Assembly: GCA_965249715.1 (NCBI GenBank)
Contig: CBDFMP010000049.1
Span: 8,547-72,546, forward strand
Length of the DNA: 64,000 nt
Direction: 5' to 3'
Source of the DNA: Spirochaetota bacterium
GTDB taxonomy: Bacteria; Spirochaetota; UBA12135; COTS27
A program made the position numbers and the translations under genes. Of the stretch, positions 53,972 to 62,199 are shown piece after piece; position 1 is the stretch's first letter; each line of letters opens with the position of its first letter. Under the pieces are notes generated by a model, which was not told where the DNA came from, searched no databases, and worked only from the letters and a program-made list of their open reading frames with translations.

Positions 53972-54658
53972 ATGCGCATTCTTTTACAGCAGGTCTTGCG
54001 TGCCGCCGGCGCGCCGGCGCTTGCGCTCGGTGCGACTTTTTTTGCTTACGGGACGCAAACAAAAATTGCCGGCTTCTCAGTGCTGGAGGCCTGGTTGGCA
54101 CCGGCAGTTATTTATACCATCCCCGGACAGCTCATTGTTGTGGAACAGGCGGCACTCGCTGCCTCGTGGCTGAGTGTCTTGCTTTCCGTCTTCCTCGTCA
54201 ATACGCGCCTTTTGCCGATGACCATGGCGGTCATGCCGCACATTAAAAGTCGTTATCTCTTAGTCAATATCGTCAACGCCCACTTTGTCGCGCTCACCAC
54301 CTGGCTGGGATTTCTGAATGCGCTGCCGCAGCTTAAAGCCCATCCGCAGCTGAGCAGGAGCACATTTTATTTTATATTTGGCGGGCTGCTCTGGTGCATT
54401 GCCTGGAGCGCGGCGCTGTTAGGTTATTTCAGCAAGGATTTTATGAGTCCTGAGTGGCAGTTGGCATTGGTGTACGTGAACCCGCTTTATTTCCTGCTGC
54501 TCATTTGGGAGCAAACACAGCAGCCCGCCAACATGCTGCCTATTGTCTTAGGGGCTGTATTGCTTCCGCCGCTGGCGTTATGGAATGCCGAGTGGAGTAT
54601 TCTTATCGCCGGGCTGATCGGCGGCACACTTGCTTTTTGGCTGAGGCGCCGCAGATGA
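53972..54658 (+). CDS. azlC: AzlC family permease
   Basis: PGQL, VNTRLLPM, hydrophobic; coupled to an AzlD-like ORF. Confidence 0.8.
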   Translation: MRILLQQVLRAAGAPALALGATFFAYGTQTKIAGFSVLEAWLAPAVIYTIPGQLIVVEQAALAASWLSVLLSVFLVNTRLLPMTMAVMPHIKSRYLLVNIVNAHFVALTTWLGFLNALPQLKAHPQLSRSTFYFIFGGLLWCIAWSAALLGYFSKDFMSPEWQLALVYVNPLYFLLLIWEQTQQPANMLPIVLGAVLLPPLALWNAEWSILIAGLIGGTLAFWLRRRR

Positions 54659-54981
54659 AAGAAGTCAGTACCCTGACAATGATAGCCTGTGCCGTAGCGG
54701 CAACCGTTTTTTGGCGTGTGCTTGGGGTGTATGTTGGCAGGCGGTTTAGCGCCGATCATCCGCTTATTGGCTGGGCAAATGCAGTCGCTTACAGTACGGT
54801 GACTGCACTGACCGTAAAACTGTTAGTATTACCTGAAGGAGCATTGGCACTGACATCTGGTCTTCAGCGTTTGGAAGCGTTGGCAGTGGCAGTCGTGGTG
54901 TTTTATGTCACGCGCAGAAATGTCCTGCTTGCTTGTCTGGCGGGTGTAGCGGTTTTTGCTGTATTGCTTTCATGGCATTGA
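54655..54981 (+). CDS. azlD: AzlD domain protein
   Basis: ATGA overlap with azlC; ATVFWRVLG, TRRNVLLA. Confidence 0.75.
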   Translation: MKEVSTLTMIACAVAATVFWRVLGVYVGRRFSADHPLIGWANAVAYSTVTALTVKLLVLPEGALALTSGLQRLEALAVAVVVFYVTRRNVLLACLAGVAVFAVLLSWH

Positions 54982-55172
54982 CGTGACTTTGACTTATAGG
55001 GCATTCCGTCCCGGATATTGTTCCCTGCCGCTGCTGAGCTCATCGTAACCCATCGTAAAAACATCACGATGAAACAGATTTTATGGTAGAACTAAAGATA
55101 AGACATTTAACCGTGAATGAGAATGCGGCTGGATGATGAAGACTGATTTATACAAATAAGGGGGGTTAAGTA

Positions 55173-55955
55173 ATGTTTTACGCACTTAAAGAAGGCAAAT
55201 CAAAAAGGAATGAAGATACTTTAACTTCTTCAATTTTTGGTTTGATGCTGAAGCTACGAACCGAGAACCCACAAACCGATTTAATGTGGGAAATTTTATG
55301 TGCTGCTTGTTTTAATAAAGAGTTGAATAATAAATTTTCTGCTCCCGGTAAGCTGGAGGAGTTTGAGTTTTGGCCATGGTGGGAACTTGGAGCTACGGCT
55401 GCTAAAAAATATGATCAGCGGCACGTTGAACCAGATCTATTCCTTAGCTTTGAGAAGCTAGATGTTATTATTGAAGCTAAGCGATCGGATGCTAACCAGC
55501 AATATGAAGATCAATGGAAAAGGGAACTTAGCGGGTATTTTACTTCTGTTAGGGAGGGTAGAGATAAACCTGTTTGTATGTTTGCTGTAGGCGGACTTTA
55601 TTCTCATAAAACAAAGCCGATCGAGCTCACTGAGATTTTTATGAAGGCTGAAGTCGAGGCAGCTGTTTTTAAACAAGTTAAAGAGGGAAGTATTAACGTT
55701 TATAAATTTACGTGGGAGCGAATTTTAGAACAAATAATTAAACTTAAAAAGAAACAGGACTTTAGCCGTGAAATTGCTGATAGCGGGGGCATATTATGCA
55801 ATGTTTTAATCGACCTTATTGGGGCATTTGATTTGCATGGTTATATTGCTTATACATGGTTTGAGACACTGCCTGCTGCAAACTTTTCAGGTATTACAGA
55901 CATTAGCAGCCATGGAGCTCTGAATGCTTGGAATCCAGCTGCATGGAAAAGTTAA
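55173..55955 (+). CDS. PD-(D/E)xK nuclease-like protein
   Basis: EDTLTSSIFG, EPDLFL, IIEAK, Q...Q motifs; AT-rich. Confidence 0.7.
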   Translation: MFYALKEGKSKRNEDTLTSSIFGLMLKLRTENPQTDLMWEILCAACFNKELNNKFSAPGKLEEFEFWPWWELGATAAKKYDQRHVEPDLFLSFEKLDVIIEAKRSDANQQYEDQWKRELSGYFTSVREGRDKPVCMFAVGGLYSHKTKPIELTEIFMKAEVEAAVFKQVKEGSINVYKFTWERILEQIIKLKKKQDFSREIADSGGILCNVLIDLIGAFDLHGYIAYTWFETLPAANFSGITDISSHGALNAWNPAAWKS

Positions 55956-55968
55956 ATGGAGAACTTAG

Positions 55969-56712
55969 ATGAACGCAGAAAATAAGCCCAGCAGTGAAGC
56001 TGAAATAGAGAAATCTTTTATTGAGGTTAGAAAAGCATATAGGTTGCTTTTTTCATATCAAAAACGAGTGATTCATTTGATGAAATATATCGAAAAACAC
56101 TTAAGGAACAGCCTTGATTATTCTTTTAGGGAAGGCTTTCCGTTGTATCATGGAATAGAGAATATTGATAAGAGAAAAGTTTTAGATTATGTGGCTAGGT
56201 GGGAATGGTTAAAACTGTATTATTTTCAGTTTTGGTTTATGGGGCGTGCTAATATAGGGTATGGCAAAAGTGTCCCCAAAGCTGAAAACAAAGAAATTCT
56301 TTTCGGTGTTGCATTACAGAGTGACTCAGGCGCTTCCGACAAACACAAAAAAAATACACTCGGACGTTGGGATCCTAATGCAATGGAAGTAGAAAACTTT
56401 TGTCCTGCTGAAGGGGCAAAAACAAGATTAATTTTTGTGGTTGGCTCGTATGATGACTGGTGCGTTAAGGATGATTATTGGGGCATTAATGGTACACTCA
56501 GGTTGCTTGATAATAATAATTGGAAAGATCCAAAAGAGCACGAAGAGCCCGAATATGAATTGAATAAGATAAATGATAAGCCAGCTCGCATAATTGGCAA
56601 GGCTTACAACTTAGCCAGCTTTAGCAATGAAGAAAAAACAATAGCCAAGCTTGATGACTTTAAAAAACACTGCGAGGGAAAAGATTTTATGTTAGTAAAG
56701 GGAACTTGGTAA
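55969..56712 (+). CDS. Hypothetical protein coupled to the nuclease-like gene
   Basis: 247-aa AT-rich ORF, GGAG RBS, 13 bp after the previous stop. Confidence 0.8.
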   Translation: MNAENKPSSEAEIEKSFIEVRKAYRLLFSYQKRVIHLMKYIEKHLRNSLDYSFREGFPLYHGIENIDKRKVLDYVARWEWLKLYYFQFWFMGRANIGYGKSVPKAENKEILFGVALQSDSGASDKHKKNTLGRWDPNAMEVENFCPAEGAKTRLIFVVGSYDDWCVKDDYWGINGTLRLLDNNNWKDPKEHEEPEYELNKINDKPARIIGKAYNLASFSNEEKTIAKLDDFKKHCEGKDFMLVKGTW

Positions 56713-56816
56713 AGCAGTATTACCATTTCTTGCAAGTTTCCACATAAATAAAAACAATTTAAATTTGCGTGTATGCTGAGGGAGACTCGCCCTTAGCCAG
56801 AACCCAACACCCCCCT

Positions 56817-56883
56817 CCGCAATCGCCAGTGTGGCGTAAGTGATAAGAAACGCTGTCCCGCGGCGCGCTGCAATAATGTAAGC
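56817..56883 (-). repeat. Divergent hemB 3'-end relic 3; direct repeat with 58503..58572
   Basis: Near-identical to 58503..58572; minus strand reads GTAFLITYATLAIA versus HemB GTAFVITYAALTIA. Confidence 0.9.
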
Positions 56884-56936
56884 ATAAAAATAGAAGTTGA
56901 TGTAAAAAAATTAAATAGTTAATGTAGGGCAAGAGT

Positions 56937-58529
56937 ATGAGTAAGAGAATAACCCTATCAATACGCCTTTTGAAAGAAGGTGTTCCTCCTGAGGACGCGT
57001 TTAAAGAACAACCAGAATCGGAGTTGGGAAAGTATGATCAAATAGCTGAGGCTAAGTATTATATTGATAAAGGCTGGAGCTTCCCACCTGATTGGGTAAA
57101 GTATCTTGGTTGGGAAAAGCCGAAGGTAAGTACTGCAAGTGCTTTATTATTTATTCCTATAAGTGATAGTGGGGGCAATCACAGACATTTTGTAGTTAGT
57201 TTTGGTTATGGGTATGCCAAGCTAAATGATGATAGGTTAGTTAGTGACTTTGGGTTAATAACTGCATTAAATATGTTAGACAATGACGGCATCAAAAGCT
57301 CCAGTGTTTTTGCCCCTTCTGATCATTCCAAACAAAAAAAAACTCAAACAACTCGGGCATCGAGCTTAGTTGGGCATGATATGGACTACTATACCCAGAT
57401 TCTTAAAAATGTTACGGGAAGAGTAAAAGATAAATATGAAGTATTGTCTAAAAATATCACTGCTAGTTTACAATCTATTAAAATTAGTACAGGCGAAGAA
57501 GTAAAAAATCTTCCTGAGTTATGCCGTAAATTTTTAGAAATTTATCAGAAAGAAGATTATAAGGAGAATTTTAAAGATCTTTTTTATATCGAACGAATAA
57601 AAGAAAAAGATCTTTGTGAAAAATTAAATAAAAAACTGATCAAAGGCATTCAAGATAAATCAGATAATATTTATCTTGAAGTTCCCGAATTAATTGATTT
57701 TCAATCTGTAAGTAAATGGCAAATCAAGTTTAAAGGCAATAGATCTAAGAAAGAATTTGATGATGTTCCAACTATAAAAGAATTTCACGGTGCAATTTCA
57801 GAGTATTCTCATATAGGTGAAATTAAAGTTGAATCTCTAAAGAAGTGGGAGATTAATTTGTTGGATGAAAATGATACTTCGCAACACTCTTTTAGCATAT
57901 TTAAATGCTTGGTATTTGAAACTAATTTAGATGAAGAAACTTATTGTTTTTCTCATGGTTATTGGTATCATATTAATTCTGATTTTAAAGAAGAAGTGAT
58001 ATCTAAGACTGAAGAGTATAAGATTGAAAAAATTAATGGTAAAAGTATTCCGATATTTGCCCATCAAAACGAAGCTGCTTATAACGAAGACTTAGCAAAA
58101 AGTACAAATGGAAAGTTATTAGATAAAAATTGTATTTCAATGGGAGGGTACGATAAAATTGAGCTTTGTGATGTACTTTACATTTCTAATAACGGAAAAA
58201 CTACTTTTTTGCACGTCAAAATAAAACATGGCGGGTCCTCAGGATTAAGCCATTTATTTGCTCAGGGAGATAATTCTCTTACTCTATTGCGCAGTAAAGA
58301 TAGTAAATTTATTGAGGGCATTAAGGTGGTCACTAATTTGGGATTAGAAGATATTGATAAAGACGTTAAGGTTCATTTTCTTATTATAAGTAAGAATGGT
58401 AGAGATATTCCTTTTTTTGCAAAGGTTTCTCTTTTTAAAACAATAAAAGAAATAATATCTAAAAATTCCAAAGTTCAGTGGTCTGTTCAGTTAAATACAA
58501 TGCCGCAATCGCCAGCGCGGCGTAAGTGA
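56937..58529 (+). CDS. TIGR04141/DUF6119-like sporadically distributed protein
   Basis: LSIRLLKEG, PPDW, SFGYG, DFGLITALN, NEAAYN, IELCDV, HVK, LSHLFAQG. Confidence 0.8.
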   Translation: MSKRITLSIRLLKEGVPPEDAFKEQPESELGKYDQIAEAKYYIDKGWSFPPDWVKYLGWEKPKVSTASALLFIPISDSGGNHRHFVVSFGYGYAKLNDDRLVSDFGLITALNMLDNDGIKSSSVFAPSDHSKQKKTQTTRASSLVGHDMDYYTQILKNVTGRVKDKYEVLSKNITASLQSIKISTGEEVKNLPELCRKFLEIYQKEDYKENFKDLFYIERIKEKDLCEKLNKKLIKGIQDKSDNIYLEVPELIDFQSVSKWQIKFKGNRSKKEFDDVPTIKEFHGAISEYSHIGEIKVESLKKWEINLLDENDTSQHSFSIFKCLVFETNLDEETYCFSHGYWYHINSDFKEEVISKTEEYKIEKINGKSIPIFAHQNEAAYNEDLAKSTNGKLLDKNCISMGGYDKIELCDVLYISNNGKTTFLHVKIKHGGSSGLSHLFAQGDNSLTLLRSKDSKFIEGIKVVTNLGLEDIDKDVKVHFLIISKNGRDIPFFAKVSLFKTIKEIISKNSKVQWSVQLNTMPQSPARRK

Positions 58530-58677
58530 TAAGAAACGCTGTCCCGCGGCACCGCGCTGCAATAATGTAAGCTGCCCGCTAATGACGGCGTGTTCGGATC
58601 AATCCACCCATTAGCGCGGCGGCGATAGGAAGCGGCGGATTGAGGATTGAGCTGCTGCAGCATGGCGATAATGTCCA
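58503..58677 (-). pseudogene. Divergent hemB 3'-end relic 2
   Basis: Minus-strand blocks DIIAML, ANGWID and GTAFLITYAALAIA are colinear with the HemB C-terminus (61180..61381). Confidence 0.88.
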
Positions 58678-58731
58678 TTGTGCCGCCCAACTGTACGCGC
58701 GATGACTTTATTGAATGTATGGTCAATTAGG

Positions 58732-59634
58732 CTACTGTTCGCGTTTGTTTAAGACGGCTGAAAGACTCCCATCGATATTCGTTAACGTTAGTGTAACGGT
58801 GAAGTGACTTTCATTGTGATTGATAACATTGCCAGCTGTGTCGCGTTCGGCAATGCACAGCTTCCCCTCTTCTAATACTTCACGTAGATAATAACCTGTG
58901 TCGTCTTCGTCCGGATCATCAAAGGTGTATAAAGTTCCATCAACTGCGGTGGCGCTGTACCCAGCTGGGAGATCTTCTCCATTGGTGATCATCCCTGTGG
59001 CAGAAACAGCGTTCAGACCTTTGAGATGGAAGGTGTCGTTTAAGAACTGTACACTAATTTGGCGATTAGCGAAAGACACGTCAAGCAGTAATGTAGGATT
59101 AGGCTTAGTAACATGGCTGGTAGCGACTATTTCACTGACTGCTGTTCCATTGTAATTAATAGAAATGTCGTAAATGATGCTTTTGCCCGCATTATTTATG
59201 ATGACAACACTGTTTGCCAGTAAAGCGTTTGTACTTTTAGCACCTGCTTGATCTGGAATGTTAATGCTGATGTTGCCGTCTGCAATGGTGAACGTCTCCG
59301 CAACTTCTGTAATGATGAGCATGCCAATATTGTCTTCTACCGCTTCACACGGCGGCAGGGTACAGGCATTGGTGACCTCCGCTAAGACAATACGCGCATT
59401 GGTGAACTGAGCGGTGACGTCGGTTGTGGCTGGCAATACGTCAATGGAAACATCCGCTAATTCGGATGTGCGCAGATCGAAAAAACTGATAGCACTGCTG
59501 ATGCTGTATTCAAACTCAGGCACAAGCGAATGATTGGTAATTTCACTGGCGGCACAACTTGTGAAGAGCGGCAGCAAGACAATGAACTGCAGTACACCTA
59601 CGGTGACAGCAAAATACCCCAAAATTGCCCCCAT
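58732..59634 (-). CDS. Putative lipoprotein of unknown function
   Basis: Hydrophobic N-terminus ending LFTSC; AAGGG RBS; acidic, Thr-rich. Confidence 0.65.
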   Translation of the reverse strand: MGAILGYFAVTVGVLQFIVLLPLFTSCAASEITNHSLVPEFEYSISSAISFFDLRTSELADVSIDVLPATTDVTAQFTNARIVLAEVTNACTLPPCEAVEDNIGMLIITEVAETFTIADGNISINIPDQAGAKSTNALLANSVVIINNAGKSIIYDISINYNGTAVSEIVATSHVTKPNPTLLLDVSFANRQISVQFLNDTFHLKGLNAVSATGMITNGEDLPAGYSATAVDGTLYTFDDPDEDDTGYYLREVLEEGKLCIAERDTAGNVINHNESHFTVTLTLTNIDGSLSAVLNKREQ

Positions 59635-59919
59635 GATTTCCCCTTGGTTAGTAGTGGTTAGAGGACATCAAACACAAAACACTTGCTGTTATTATAACAT
59701 GTATTGCTACAATGAAAATACAGGGTTTTGAATTTAAACTTAGAGCCAGTTGCAGCTGTTGTGGCATTGTAGCCAGCTTGTAAATGCAGCCCGCCATAAA
59801 CTGGCGGGGGGGCAAAATTGGATGATTGATTGAAATGCGCTCAGCGCGGTGCTGAGTGGTTTTTATGTAGTTGGGAAAAGCGTTCTTTTGGAAAGGCTAT
59901 ACGCTCACCATTTACATTG

Positions 59920-60774
59920 TTAATGCAATGCTGCCCGTGCGGGTTCAGCTTGTGCAGCGGGTGAGTGATAATCGTACTGAGCCTGCGTTTTGTTTGCAGG
60001 CAGGCGATGTTCAGGAGCTATTTTTCCGCCAGTGCGGAGCCGCTGCTTGATCATTTTGTAGTACTGAGGATGCAGCTCAGCGCTGATAAAATTGCGTTCA
60101 AGACTCCGGCAGAGCAGCAGTTCATTGCCGCTGCCGCCGAAGAGAATGCAGCAATCATCGCCGCGCCGCGTGGCAGCTTGGATGAGCATGGTCACAAGCG
60201 GGAGGGGGATTTGGCAGGCGTGGAAAGTTTTATCTTTGTTGACGTTTTTCACAAGATTAAAATAAAACCAGTTATACGGCATCGCGCCTTTATGCCCGGC
60301 AGCCAAACGCGCCTGAATGCGTTTATCGTTGAGGTTTTTGTAGGGCACTGCAACTTGATTTTTATAAAAATGATTGTTTTTACTTTTAGTAGCGTGCAGA
60401 ATGGAGCGATGCGCAGTGGTGAAACGTTTGCGGCTGTGACCAACATTAGTATTGTAAACCCATGCGTAATCCTGTACGGCATGGGCGTTATTGTCTAAAT
60501 ACTTAACGCGCAGGTAGGCGTTTTGCTTGGGGTAATTGATGAGGAAGAGGTTGCCTGTGGGTTTGAGGACACGCAATGCGGCAGCTGTCAGCTCACAGTA
60601 CCAGTCGATGTACGCGTCCCATTTTTTATTGTAATGGCGACCTGCATAAGATACGCCGACATTGTAATCGGGGTCGCCGTAAATAAAGTCAAGCGATGCG
60701 GGCGGAAGCCGTCCCAGTAATTTAAGGATATCCTCTTGAAAGACCTGATTTCTAAAAGGCTTCAATGCGTCCAT
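59920..60774 (-). CDS. N4/N6 DNA methyltransferase, beta class, orphan
   Basis: DPDY catalytic-type motif, RVLKPTG, H.CQ.P, FGGSG SAM-binding motif after the catalytic motif. Confidence 0.88.
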   Translation of the reverse strand: MDALKPFRNQVFQEDILKLLGRLPPASLDFIYGDPDYNVGVSYAGRHYNKKWDAYIDWYCELTAAALRVLKPTGNLFLINYPKQNAYLRVKYLDNNAHAVQDYAWVYNTNVGHSRKRFTTAHRSILHATKSKNNHFYKNQVAVPYKNLNDKRIQARLAAGHKGAMPYNWFYFNLVKNVNKDKTFHACQIPLPLVTMLIQAATRRGDDCCILFGGSGNELLLCRSLERNFISAELHPQYYKMIKQRLRTGGKIAPEHRLPANKTQAQYDYHSPAAQAEPARAALH

Positions 60775-60825
60775 TGTAATGGCTTAGCGTACACCTCAGC
60801 CTTTATGTTGCATTGAGCAATTTTT

Positions 60826-60866
60826 TTCGGCGATAGTCAGCGCAGCCGTAATGACAAAAGCTGTGC
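60826..60866 (-). repeat. Near-identical hemB 3'-end relic 1 (copy of 61177..61220)
   Basis: TTCGGCGATAGTCAGCGCAGC---CGTAATGACAAAAGCTGTGC; two synonymous changes and a 3-bp deletion. Confidence 0.9.
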
Positions 60867-60886
60867 AGGTGTGTTGGATTGCCCCT

Positions 60887-61069
60887 TTATGCTATATCCT
60901 CAACATTAGCTATTGACGCATTTTCTTTTACAGATTTTATGCCGTTTTCGCAAGCTTGTTTGCTGCTGTATCCTTCAGAAGTAGCGATAATTTCACCATT
61001 TTTTGCCCTTAGCCTGAAACGATATTCATCAGCCCGATCTTTGAATATTTGAAATTTTGGATTTTCCAT
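60887..61069 (-). CDS. YegP/DUF1508 family protein
   Basis: FQIFKD..EYRFRLRAKNGEIIATSEGYSSK..CENGI.SVK.NA; GGGAG RBS. Confidence 0.92.
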   Translation of the reverse strand: MENPKFQIFKDRADEYRFRLRAKNGEIIATSEGYSSKQACENGIKSVKENASIANVEDIA

Positions 61070-61161
61070 TTTTGTGTCTCCCAATTGTTTTTACTAAACT
61101 GTAATTGTTGTTGAACTAATGCCCACCAATAGATTCTAATATAAGTAGCAATAAAATCGGG

Positions 61162-62199
61162 TTAAATTAATTTGTGTTCAGCGATAGTTAGCGCAGCGTA
61201 CGTAATGACAAAAGCTGTGCCGGCACGCTGAAAGGCGGTGAACAGCTCGGCGAGCGCGGCATGTTCATCGAGCCACCCCTTAGCAGCAGCAGCTTTAAGC
61301 ATCGCGTATTCACCCGAAACATGGTAGGCGGCGATGGGCAGCGGCGGCTTGAGCTCACGGTGTAACATCGCAATAATGTCTAAATACGGTGTGGCTGGTT
61401 TCACCATCAGCAGGTCTGCGCCCTCAGCGACATCGAGTAAAGCTTCACGTAATGCCTCACGGGCATTGCTGGGATCCATTTGGTAGCTGCGGCGATCGCC
61501 GAACTGCATCTGCGATGCCGCGGCAGTACGGAAGGGACCGTAAAATGCCGAAACAAACTTAACAGCATAACTCAAAATAGGAATTTGCGAGTACTGCTCA
61601 GCATCCAATGCTGTACGGATGGAAGCGACCATGCCGTCTAGCATTGCAGAAGGGGCGATAATGTCAGCGCCAGCTTGTGCCTGGATCACCGCTTGTTTGG
61701 CAAGCAATGGCAAGGTGGCATCGTTATCGACGGTTTGACTTCCAGCGGGTACAATGCCGCAATGTCCGTGTGCGGTGTACTCGCAAAAACAACAATCGGT
61801 GATAACAATGAGCTCAGGAAAACGCGCCTTAATGGTGCGGACAGCTTCGGCGATGACACCAGTGGCGCTGATGGCGTCACTTCCTGATGCGTCCTTGTGT
61901 TTGGGGATGCCGAAAAGGATAATGGCGCGGATGCCGGCATTGAGACAGCGTTCAATGTGCGGAAGCGCACGCGTGGCAGAGTATTGCGATATGCCCGGGA
62001 GCGCTGGAATGGCAGCCTCATGTTCCGGGTGGTGATGGATGAAAAAGGGCATGACCAGCTTACTGGGATTGAGCGCGGTTTCACGCACCAGCGCGCGTAA
62101 CTGAGGACTGCGGCGCAAGCGGCGCGGGCGGTGTTTGAACGGCAATGTCCGCTGTGACGAAGCTTTTAATATTGGCGCTGAGGTCATGGATGTTCCCAC
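61162..62199 (-). CDS. hemB: Porphobilinogen synthase
   Basis: RPRRLR, CFCEYTAHGHCG, FYGPFR, YQMDP, MVKP, AYHVSGEYAM. Confidence 0.98.
   Translation of the reverse strand: MGTSMTSAPILKASSQRTLPFKHRPRRLRRSPQLRALVRETALNPSKLVMPFFIHHHPEHEAAIPALPGISQYSATRALPHIERCLNAGIRAIILFGIPKHKDASGSDAISATGVIAEAVRTIKARFPELIVITDCCFCEYTAHGHCGIVPAGSQTVDNDATLPLLAKQAVIQAQAGADIIAPSAMLDGMVASIRTALDAEQYSQIPILSYAVKFVSAFYGPFRTAAASQMQFGDRRSYQMDPSNAREALREALLDVAEGADLLMVKPATPYLDIIAMLHRELKPPLPIAAYHVSGEYAMLKAAAAKGWLDEHAALAELFTAFQRAGTAFVITYAALTIAEHKLI

Follow-up and report, generated by a model that had tools for sequence, protein, structure and literature searches.

The gap between hemB and azlD in a Spirochaetota bacterium is a hot spot of variable cargo, where small blocks of genes lie behind the 3′ end of hemB and are separated by copies of that end. 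It was studied in a window of 64,000 nt (the whole stretch of contig CBDFMP010000049.1 under analysis, to which plain coordinates refer) of a binned genome of 2.42 Mb in 49 contigs. From hemB towards lower coordinates, the order is yegP, relic 1, a DNA methyltransferase (MTase) gene, a lipoprotein-like gene, relic 2, a DUF6119 gene, relic 3, PDC-M15B, PDC-M15A, azlD and azlC, each relic being a partial copy of the hemB tail. This array is a real and tidy structure, and it is a multi-step version of a known insertion route, not a categorically new system. We tentatively interpret it as the outcome of insertions that involve no recombinase gene of their own and duplicate a long piece of the target gene end, in which the recombination or repair machinery of the host acted on DNA arriving, in many cases, from related lineages. 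How defence and accessory genes enter genomes without integrases or transposases is still poorly understood, and this genome offers a stacked, nested case at a housekeeping gene along with five sister loci.

Gene identities were assigned by Pfam, NCBIfam and PADLOC profile matches to the proteins of the window. The hemB gene (porphobilinogen synthase; 61162..62199, minus strand) is intact (Pfam ALAD, 5.4e-135; NCBIfam PRK09283, 1.7e-135), and the match to the NCBIfam profile ends at residue 341 of 345. To evaluate the relics, each was aligned locally with the hemB 3′ region, with 300 shuffles per relic as control. All three are co-oriented with hemB, and all outscore every shuffle. Relic 1 (60819..60869, minus strand), a copy of hemB codons ~327-341, aligns at 60869..60819 with hemB 61223..61169 (score 74; shuffle mean 19.7, maximum 34). 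The sequence-only reading, a first reading of the bare DNA, had called it near-identical to the live end; the copy is real, but the wording was generous, as identity is ~90% with a 3-nt gap and a 1-nt gap. Relic 2 (58485..58678, minus strand), judged by alignment and codon comparison, represents the degraded final ~220 nt of a divergent hemB allele. It aligns at 58641..58485 with hemB 61310..61161 (score 81; shuffle maximum 38), and under gentler gap costs the alignment reaches 58678 against hemB 61383, with 133 of 179 aligned bases matching (74%). A 39-nt deletion and several small indels are found in this relic, which can be read as hemB only with at least four frame changes. Relic 3 (56816..56883, minus strand) aligns at 56873..56816 with a score of 42 (shuffle maximum 34).

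The stretch copied by the relics is the last ~220 nt of hemB (61161-61383), and the lengths of the repeats are 51 nt (live tail and relic 1), 67-70 nt (relics 2 and 3) and ~180-220 nt (live tail and relic 2). All three relics cease to match hemB within ~2 nt of codon 341, the same point at which the family profile ends. The proposal that three hemB ends separate the cargo blocks is confirmed by these alignments, the positions first suggested for them lying inside ours.

Relic 3 has a special relationship with relic 2, as it is a near-exact copy of its 3′ part: identity is 96% between 56817-56864 and 58503-58550 and 100% between 56864-56883 and 58553-58572, and there is a single 3-nt indel. By blastn, identity is 92.9% over 70 columns, and the two are ~97% alike overall; relic 3 extends 2 nt deeper into hemB (..GCG GAG). 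A +2 indel relative to hemB, located between the FQR and GTAF codons, is common to both. Alignment and blastn thus identify relic 3 as a 67-nt duplicate of the 3′ part of relic 2, not as an independent old hemB end. Because the two relics share both their sequence and the frameshift, the DUF6119 gene that lies between them evidently entered a hemB tail whose reading frame had already been lost, in other words a stranded copy and not the live end.

The DUF6119 gene (56937..58529, plus strand; PF19614, 2.1e-110; TIGR04141, 5.6e-101) is the only gene bracketed by this 67-nt repeat. Its open reading frame (ORF) lacks a stop codon of its own: the last ~9 codons and the stop (58503-58529) are read from relic 2 in antisense, and the TIGR04141 profile match ends at residue 514 of the 530-residue protein. 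In public reads, a related gene terminates in another context, ~3 codons past codon 513 (loose end at 58475, run X1). Although it is the farthest cassette with relics on both sides, DUF6119 looks the youngest. The idea that the array grew in chronological order from the live hemB end, with the nearest relic as the latest, is contradicted by this arrangement; the order of relics in such arrays does not work as a clock.

Comparison of codons sheds light on the origin of the tails. Over the final 15 codons, 10 synonymous and three non-synonymous changes distinguish relic 2 from the live tail, with 12.7 synonymous sites among 45. If relic 2 were a copy made in situ that decayed neutrally, non-synonymous changes should dominate; the probability of the observed pattern is ~0.008 under an assumed non-synonymous share of 0.6. 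The synonymous excess suggests that the two tails are alleles from different lineages, each of which probably evolved as the coding end of a hemB gene. If so, the hemB body acquired an imported tail in at least one event, and the incoming DNA brought its own hemB end. An imported tail copy narrows the range of mechanisms: recombination inside the tail becomes more likely, and a staggered cut followed by fill-in less so. In relic 1, two synonymous changes, one change at the 5′ edge, a one-codon (TAC) gap and a 1-nt gap separate the copy from the live tail, and these differences are too few to tell an imported tail from an in-situ copy. In the relic continuations, IAEKNCSMQHKG and the relic-2 type of end may represent former live C-termini of HemB.

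The scenario that we tentatively favor would involve at least three separate insertions, each by one reciprocal join inside hemB-tail sequence. Every join would leave the inserted DNA between two tail copies: one would give hemB a functional end whose last few codons are new and come from the insert, and the second would be stranded as a relic. The topology itself, with blocks lying between two gene-end copies as expected from one reciprocal join within that end, is shown by the sequence, whereas the enzymes involved and the succession of events are proposed. In the earliest event, a beta-type tail (relic 2) would have been displaced by DNA carrying a different hemB-tail allele together with the MTase/lipoprotein block. 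Later, the yegP block would have entered at the live tail, giving rise to relic 1. The last event would be the entry of DUF6119 into relic 2, already decayed, with duplication of 67 nt as relic 3. We infer this order from the identities of the repeats (74% for the live tail and relic 2, ~90% for the live tail and relic 1, ~97% for relics 2 and 3), the GC content of the cargo and the shared frameshift.

AT-richness of several cargo blocks had been noticed from the letters alone, and it is real: GC content is 26-32% in DUF6119, 35-40% in the PDC-M15 pair and 37-44% in the yegP region, compared with ~47% in the genome and 45-49% in its larger contigs; the MTase/lipoprotein block shows 44-52%. The ranking DUF6119 < yegP < MTase/lipoprotein, set against the genome value, fits the proposed order. 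The lipoprotein-like protein has four paralogous domains in its own genome (35-38% identity), while none of 400 other genomes of the phylum has a match; hence, among the genomes searched, the family is present only in its own genome. Such a restricted distribution suggests donors from related lineages for this block. For DUF6119, a scan of species genomes yielded one distant match (29%), and a literature search on the family found nothing relevant.

Pfam, PADLOC and NCBIfam searches of the six cargo ORFs revealed neither recombinase nor transposase domains. Profile searches of the whole genome detected two PF00589 (tyrosine recombinase) genes, both outside the window and in ordinary chromosomal context, and no PF00239 (serine recombinase) or rve gene; DDE domains were represented by three short fragments only, and integrase remnants were not detected genome-wide at E<=0.001. 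From their sequence and neighbors, both PF00589 genes are putatively Xer-like. The tally is the same in a sister species of the same genus, whose genome (G001) is a single contig: two PF00589 and no PF00239. The initial description of the array as integrase-free is therefore supported. RecA, ComEC and DprA are present in the genome studied, an observation that lends weak support to the host-driven interpretation, these proteins being encoded by most control genomes as well. The closest RecA among the proteins searched, 73% identical, is labelled Spirochaetota bacterium.

Similar repeats occur elsewhere in the genome: when 18 loci out of 103 low-copy local direct repeats were inspected, six of them, hemB included, were found to have a gene end duplicated around inserted genes, with repeats of 40-99 nt that are 87-98% identical. 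One further locus (C42) has a duplicated 5′ end, and the rest were paralogues, tandem repeats or cases without clear assignment. Five unrelated genes show the same duplication as hemB, so the site is not specific to hemB and the special role attributed to this gene end falls.

A second array is found ~7 kb beyond the end of the window, at a type III-like mod gene (C49:79523-86778; positions with a C handle refer to contigs). The last 40 nt of mod recur at 82327-82366 (97.5%) and at 83796-83835, and copies 2 and 3 have 66 nt in common. The cargo consists of a DUF4411 gene paired with a Peptidase_M78/HTH gene, followed by SocA/Panacea and a 147-aa ORF; the res gene lies next, and has no match in G001 or in another genome, G002. 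Further gene-end duplications (48-99 nt, 87-95% identity) are located at C35:16348-17420, C35:33302-33955, C25:20524-23497, C49:98376-99611 and C42:93288-94667; these five comprise four 3′ ends and one 5′ end. Duplicated 3′ ends include those of a MotA/ExbB gene (99-nt repeat with a pentapeptide gene inside), leuA (48-50-nt repeat enclosing 2.9 kb with an MTase), an AHSA1-like gene (55-nt repeat with an ACR3-type transporter inside) and a 213-aa ORF (63-nt repeat). At the C42 locus, it is the 5′ end that is duplicated around an inserted gene; the ORF has 137 aa and we read it as glyoxalase-like.

Among published phenomena, the best fit for the hemB array is insertion with long target duplication (ILTD). 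Passages of PMC2853133 (Furuta, Abe and Kobayashi 2010) describe restriction-modification units and orphan MTases inserted without mobility genes between repeats longer than 30 bp, which often span a stop or start codon in such a way that the target gene survives; the mechanism is given there as unknown. The inserts of the hemB array are likewise small (the criterion being <20 kb) and free of mobility genes, their direct repeats exceed 30 bp and vary in length, and orphan MTases and type III M genes are found among inserts and targets. The array differs in that one gene bears three repeats, stacked and nested, and in that the cargo is mostly not R plus M, an MTase being the only such component recognized, although orphan-M cases also appear in the passages of PMC2853133. 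Relics 2 and 3 fit a duplicated recipient target, while the live tail and relic 2 look like two alleles instead. An earlier study of restriction-modification units by Nobusato et al. in 2000 is said to have dealt with the same route, for which no mechanism has emerged since that year.

Other systems resemble the hemB array in part. The elements e14 and phage 21 integrate in the 3′ end of icd and carry a replacement end that differs mainly at silent sites. As in those cases, the displaced hemB end persists as a pseudogene fragment on the distal side of the insert. However, the hemB array has neither integrase nor phage genes, its blocks measure only 0.3-2.1 kb, and several events are stacked. 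In islands with ordinary attachment (att) scars, the direct repeat is also a copy of the 3′ end of the target gene, which is restored as hemB is; in our case there is no tyrosine or serine integrase in or beside the array. Tandem accretion of the CIME/ICESt1 type at the 3′ end of a target gene, with some elements devoid of integration genes, is described in passages of PMC5704250, and the ssrA islands of Dehalococcoides (PMC3146451) were compared as att-flanked arrays at one gene end. Both resemble the hemB array in having att-flanked blocks at one gene end, where a new arrival may use an internal att copy, but differ in that a cognate integrase is always found in a neighboring or related element. 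An integrase-bearing element with the same att as the hemB array was not found in its own genome, in G001 or at the 94 other hemB loci searched.

The array had also been likened to an integron. Integrons and CALIN share with it serial small cassettes, short repeats between them that resemble recombination sites and the lack of an adjacent integrase. The analogy breaks down on closer inspection: the hemB array has no IntI or attI, its repeats are pieces of a housekeeping gene, and its cargo genes do not all point in one direction. Moreover, attC-like folding was not detected when six relic or site sequences were examined as single-stranded DNA (z from -0.98 to +0.70 against shuffles).

The hemB neighborhood was then considered in relatives. 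In G001, the hemB-azlD junction contains one DUF4145/HEPN gene and no hemB relic, and the neighbors are the same as in the window. The presence of different cargo at the same junction indicates a variable, defence-flavored spot in the genus; variable cargo had been predicted from the sequence, and so had hemB tails bounding it, which this relative lacks. At the G001 locus (L025, 10852-18324), two GmrSD-type genes lie beside azlC, and no cargo is common to both species. Tail relics are absent from all 94 other hemB loci with >=300 nt of downstream sequence, where a single 19-nt match was found; hence hemB is not a commonly used attachment site (attB) among those sampled. Titles and abstracts retrieved by a literature search contained no report of hemB as integration site for integrase-bearing genomic islands. 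Relatives of hemB, 39-61% identical, are present in 20 of 41 genomes, the genome studied included (40 relatives were searched). The closest hemB in metagenome contigs is 57% identical, and the closest among 5.8 billion proteins, own copy aside, 59%. The hemB of the window (61162-62199) is only 51-61% identical to that of G001 (L025, 18384-19508), no closer than to those of unrelated phyla (56-59%), and hemB may have been horizontally replaced in one of these two same-genus genomes.

Several observations weigh against the host-driven interpretation. Identity between the live tail and relic 2 is only 74%, no exact run exceeds ~9 nt, and RecA-type recombination between the two in their present state is implausible. 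The relic boundary common at codon 341 could mark a preferred site rather than the point where conservation of hemB ceases. The three copies at the mod locus make up a mosaic of attL, attP-like and attR type, reading B-O-P′, P-O-P′ and P-O-B′ (chromosome-left/cassette-right, cassette-left/cassette-right and cassette-left/chromosome-right), and two unrelated cassettes have identical arms of 33 and 13 nt, as site-specific recombination predicts. At the other loci, the repeats are too similar to one another for imported tails to be told from in-situ duplication. An empty site was sought in relatives, and none was close enough, the nearest hemB being 56-61% identical. Lastly, the genome is a bin that is 84.85% complete, and mobile elements are often left out of bins.

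The codon-341 boundary, the att-like mosaic of mod and an identity between live tail and relic 2 that is too low for RecA keep two alternatives in play. One is that integrase-less cassettes were moved in trans by a site-specific recombinase encoded elsewhere, either in an unbinned element or as the host Xer pair, so that the tails would be att sites comparable to those of CIMEs or dif modules; Xer-dependent modules (IMEX or dif modules) are bounded by dif-like sites that bind XerC and XerD. We consider this explanation rather unlikely, even if the common 3′ boundary of the three relics, the B-O-P′, P-O-P′ and P-O-B′ copies with identical arms on unrelated cassettes and the incompleteness of the genome (only 85%) speak for it, as does the integrase-less accretion documented in passages of PMC5704250. 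At least six unrelated targets in one genome would require several specificities, the single-contig sister genome has no recombinase beyond its two PF00589 genes, the repeats are direct and not alternating, and neither the relic core nor the mod arm has an exact match in viral contigs. In addition, a search of the genome for a dif site to be used in comparison found no E. coli-type dif within six mismatches and no convincing dif-like palindrome, with the proviso that the E. coli consensus may not be that of this lineage.

The other alternative appears doubtful: the hemB 3′ end would have served as attB for one or more classical islands or prophages with an integrase, which brought a replacement end and later lost the integrase and most other genes by deletion. 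Relic 2 has the look of such an event, as a displaced tail of ~220 nt whose differences from the live tail are largely synonymous, and passages of PMC5704250 document decay of this kind for CIMEs. Yet every block here and at the five other loci would have had to lose its integrase cleanly and independently, without leaving a remnant detectable at the threshold used, and the blocks measure only 0.3-2.1 kb and are devoid of phage or conjugation genes. The lack of tail relics at 94 other hemB loci and, in the titles and abstracts retrieved, of reports of hemB as an integration site also speaks against it. An explanation without import is highly improbable: local segmental duplication or rearrangement in a repeat-rich genome would have copied hemB ends, and unrelated insertions would have landed between them later. 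Repeats are certainly abundant (1942 local direct-repeat alignments within 25 kb), and at least one locus, C36, consists simply of a segment repeated three times in tandem, two gene tails included. Nevertheless, such a history does not account for the synonymous bias between the live tail and relic 2, the location of every relic exactly at a cargo boundary, the foreign GC content of the cargo or the 67-nt repeat around exactly one gene.

Host-driven insertion with long target duplication is thus the interpretation that we favor, because the pattern recurs at unrelated targets and the genome has only two tyrosine recombinases, Xer-like by our reading. A bolder variant seems quite unlikely: in a recombinase-poor lineage, a copy of the 3′ end of a host gene would serve as a portable attachment site, and tailed cassettes would be stacked at many gene ends by host enzymes alone, be they RecA and repair functions or the Xer pair. 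If true, the genome would contain an integron-like accretion platform that needs no integrase gene, with several nested examples of long target duplication.

The remaining features of the array can be described as follows. The yegP/DUF1508 gene (60887..61084, minus strand) encodes 65 aa and lies 77 nt past the hemB stop codon (PF07411, 2.3e-24; NF041908, 1.4e-21). An N6/N4 DNA MTase is encoded at 59920..60774 (minus strand; PF01555, 1.8e-27; PADLOC MTase_II, 2.2e-109); no restriction enzyme was recognized beside it using Pfam and PADLOC, which makes it an orphan. The lipoprotein-like gene (58732..59634, minus strand) encodes a 300-aa protein with a signal/lipobox-like N-terminus and has no Pfam or NCBIfam match. 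PDC-M15A (55173-55955, plus strand; PADLOC, 1e-52) and PDC-M15B (55969-56712, plus strand; PADLOC, 3.7e-38) are a candidate defence pair. Three cargo genes are on the plus strand and three on the minus strand. The suggestion that the cargo is related to defence holds for part of it, namely PDC-M15A/B and the type II-like MTase. At the far edge of the variable gap, azlD is conserved (54646..54981, plus strand; PF05437, 5e-14), with azlC upstream (53972-54658; PF03591, 2.2e-15). No tRNA, tmRNA or Rfam family was found within the array region. On its azlD side, no significant relic accompanies the PDC-M15 block (score 41, shuffle maximum 48), and a repeat that flanks the pair (55057-55089 and 56663-56695) was not significant.

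Short motifs near the boundaries were also considered. By eye only, GTTAAAT is seen at both the live tail and relic 2, 9-11 nt past the boundary. The 10-mer TTTTTATGCT occurs at the cargo-side edge of relic 3 (~56884-56893, minus strand) and of both distal mod copies (C49:82298 and C49:83770), in all three cases on the promoter side of cargo on the opposite strand. Its candidacy as a boundary motif was not sustained: these are three of 40 occurrences in the genome, the other 37 lack a common context, and the coincidence may be due to chance.

The genome is rich in repeats (5995 self-alignments, the local direct repeats included), mostly in long repetitive ORFs, and many contigs end in such repeats. 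An automated census of tail copies downstream and upstream of ORFs (291 and 104, respectively, after filtering) was not used, as it was swamped by tandem-repeat genes and spurious ORFs. At C25:18908-20660, leuA is represented by two overlapping ORFs, of 342 and 260 aa, each in its own frame, which may indicate a frameshifted gene or an assembly error.

Public reads from four runs of one sample contain the hemB locus, in low-depth contigs with strain-level differences. The arrangement of yegP, relic 1, MTase and hemB is common to the read-derived variants compared. No contig joins relic 2 to relic 3: all unitigs break at an exact repeat of 28-30 nt, and an inserted DUF6119 cannot be told there from an empty site plus an excised circle. 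The depth of the DUF6119 unitigs in run X2 (2.4-3.1, compared with 5.6 and 4.0) is lower and was judged unusable as evidence. In run X3, contigs match up to the end of azlD (54977) or start at the hemB start codon (62197) and then continue into unrelated sequence, which hints at a co-occurring relative with different content at the hemB locus.

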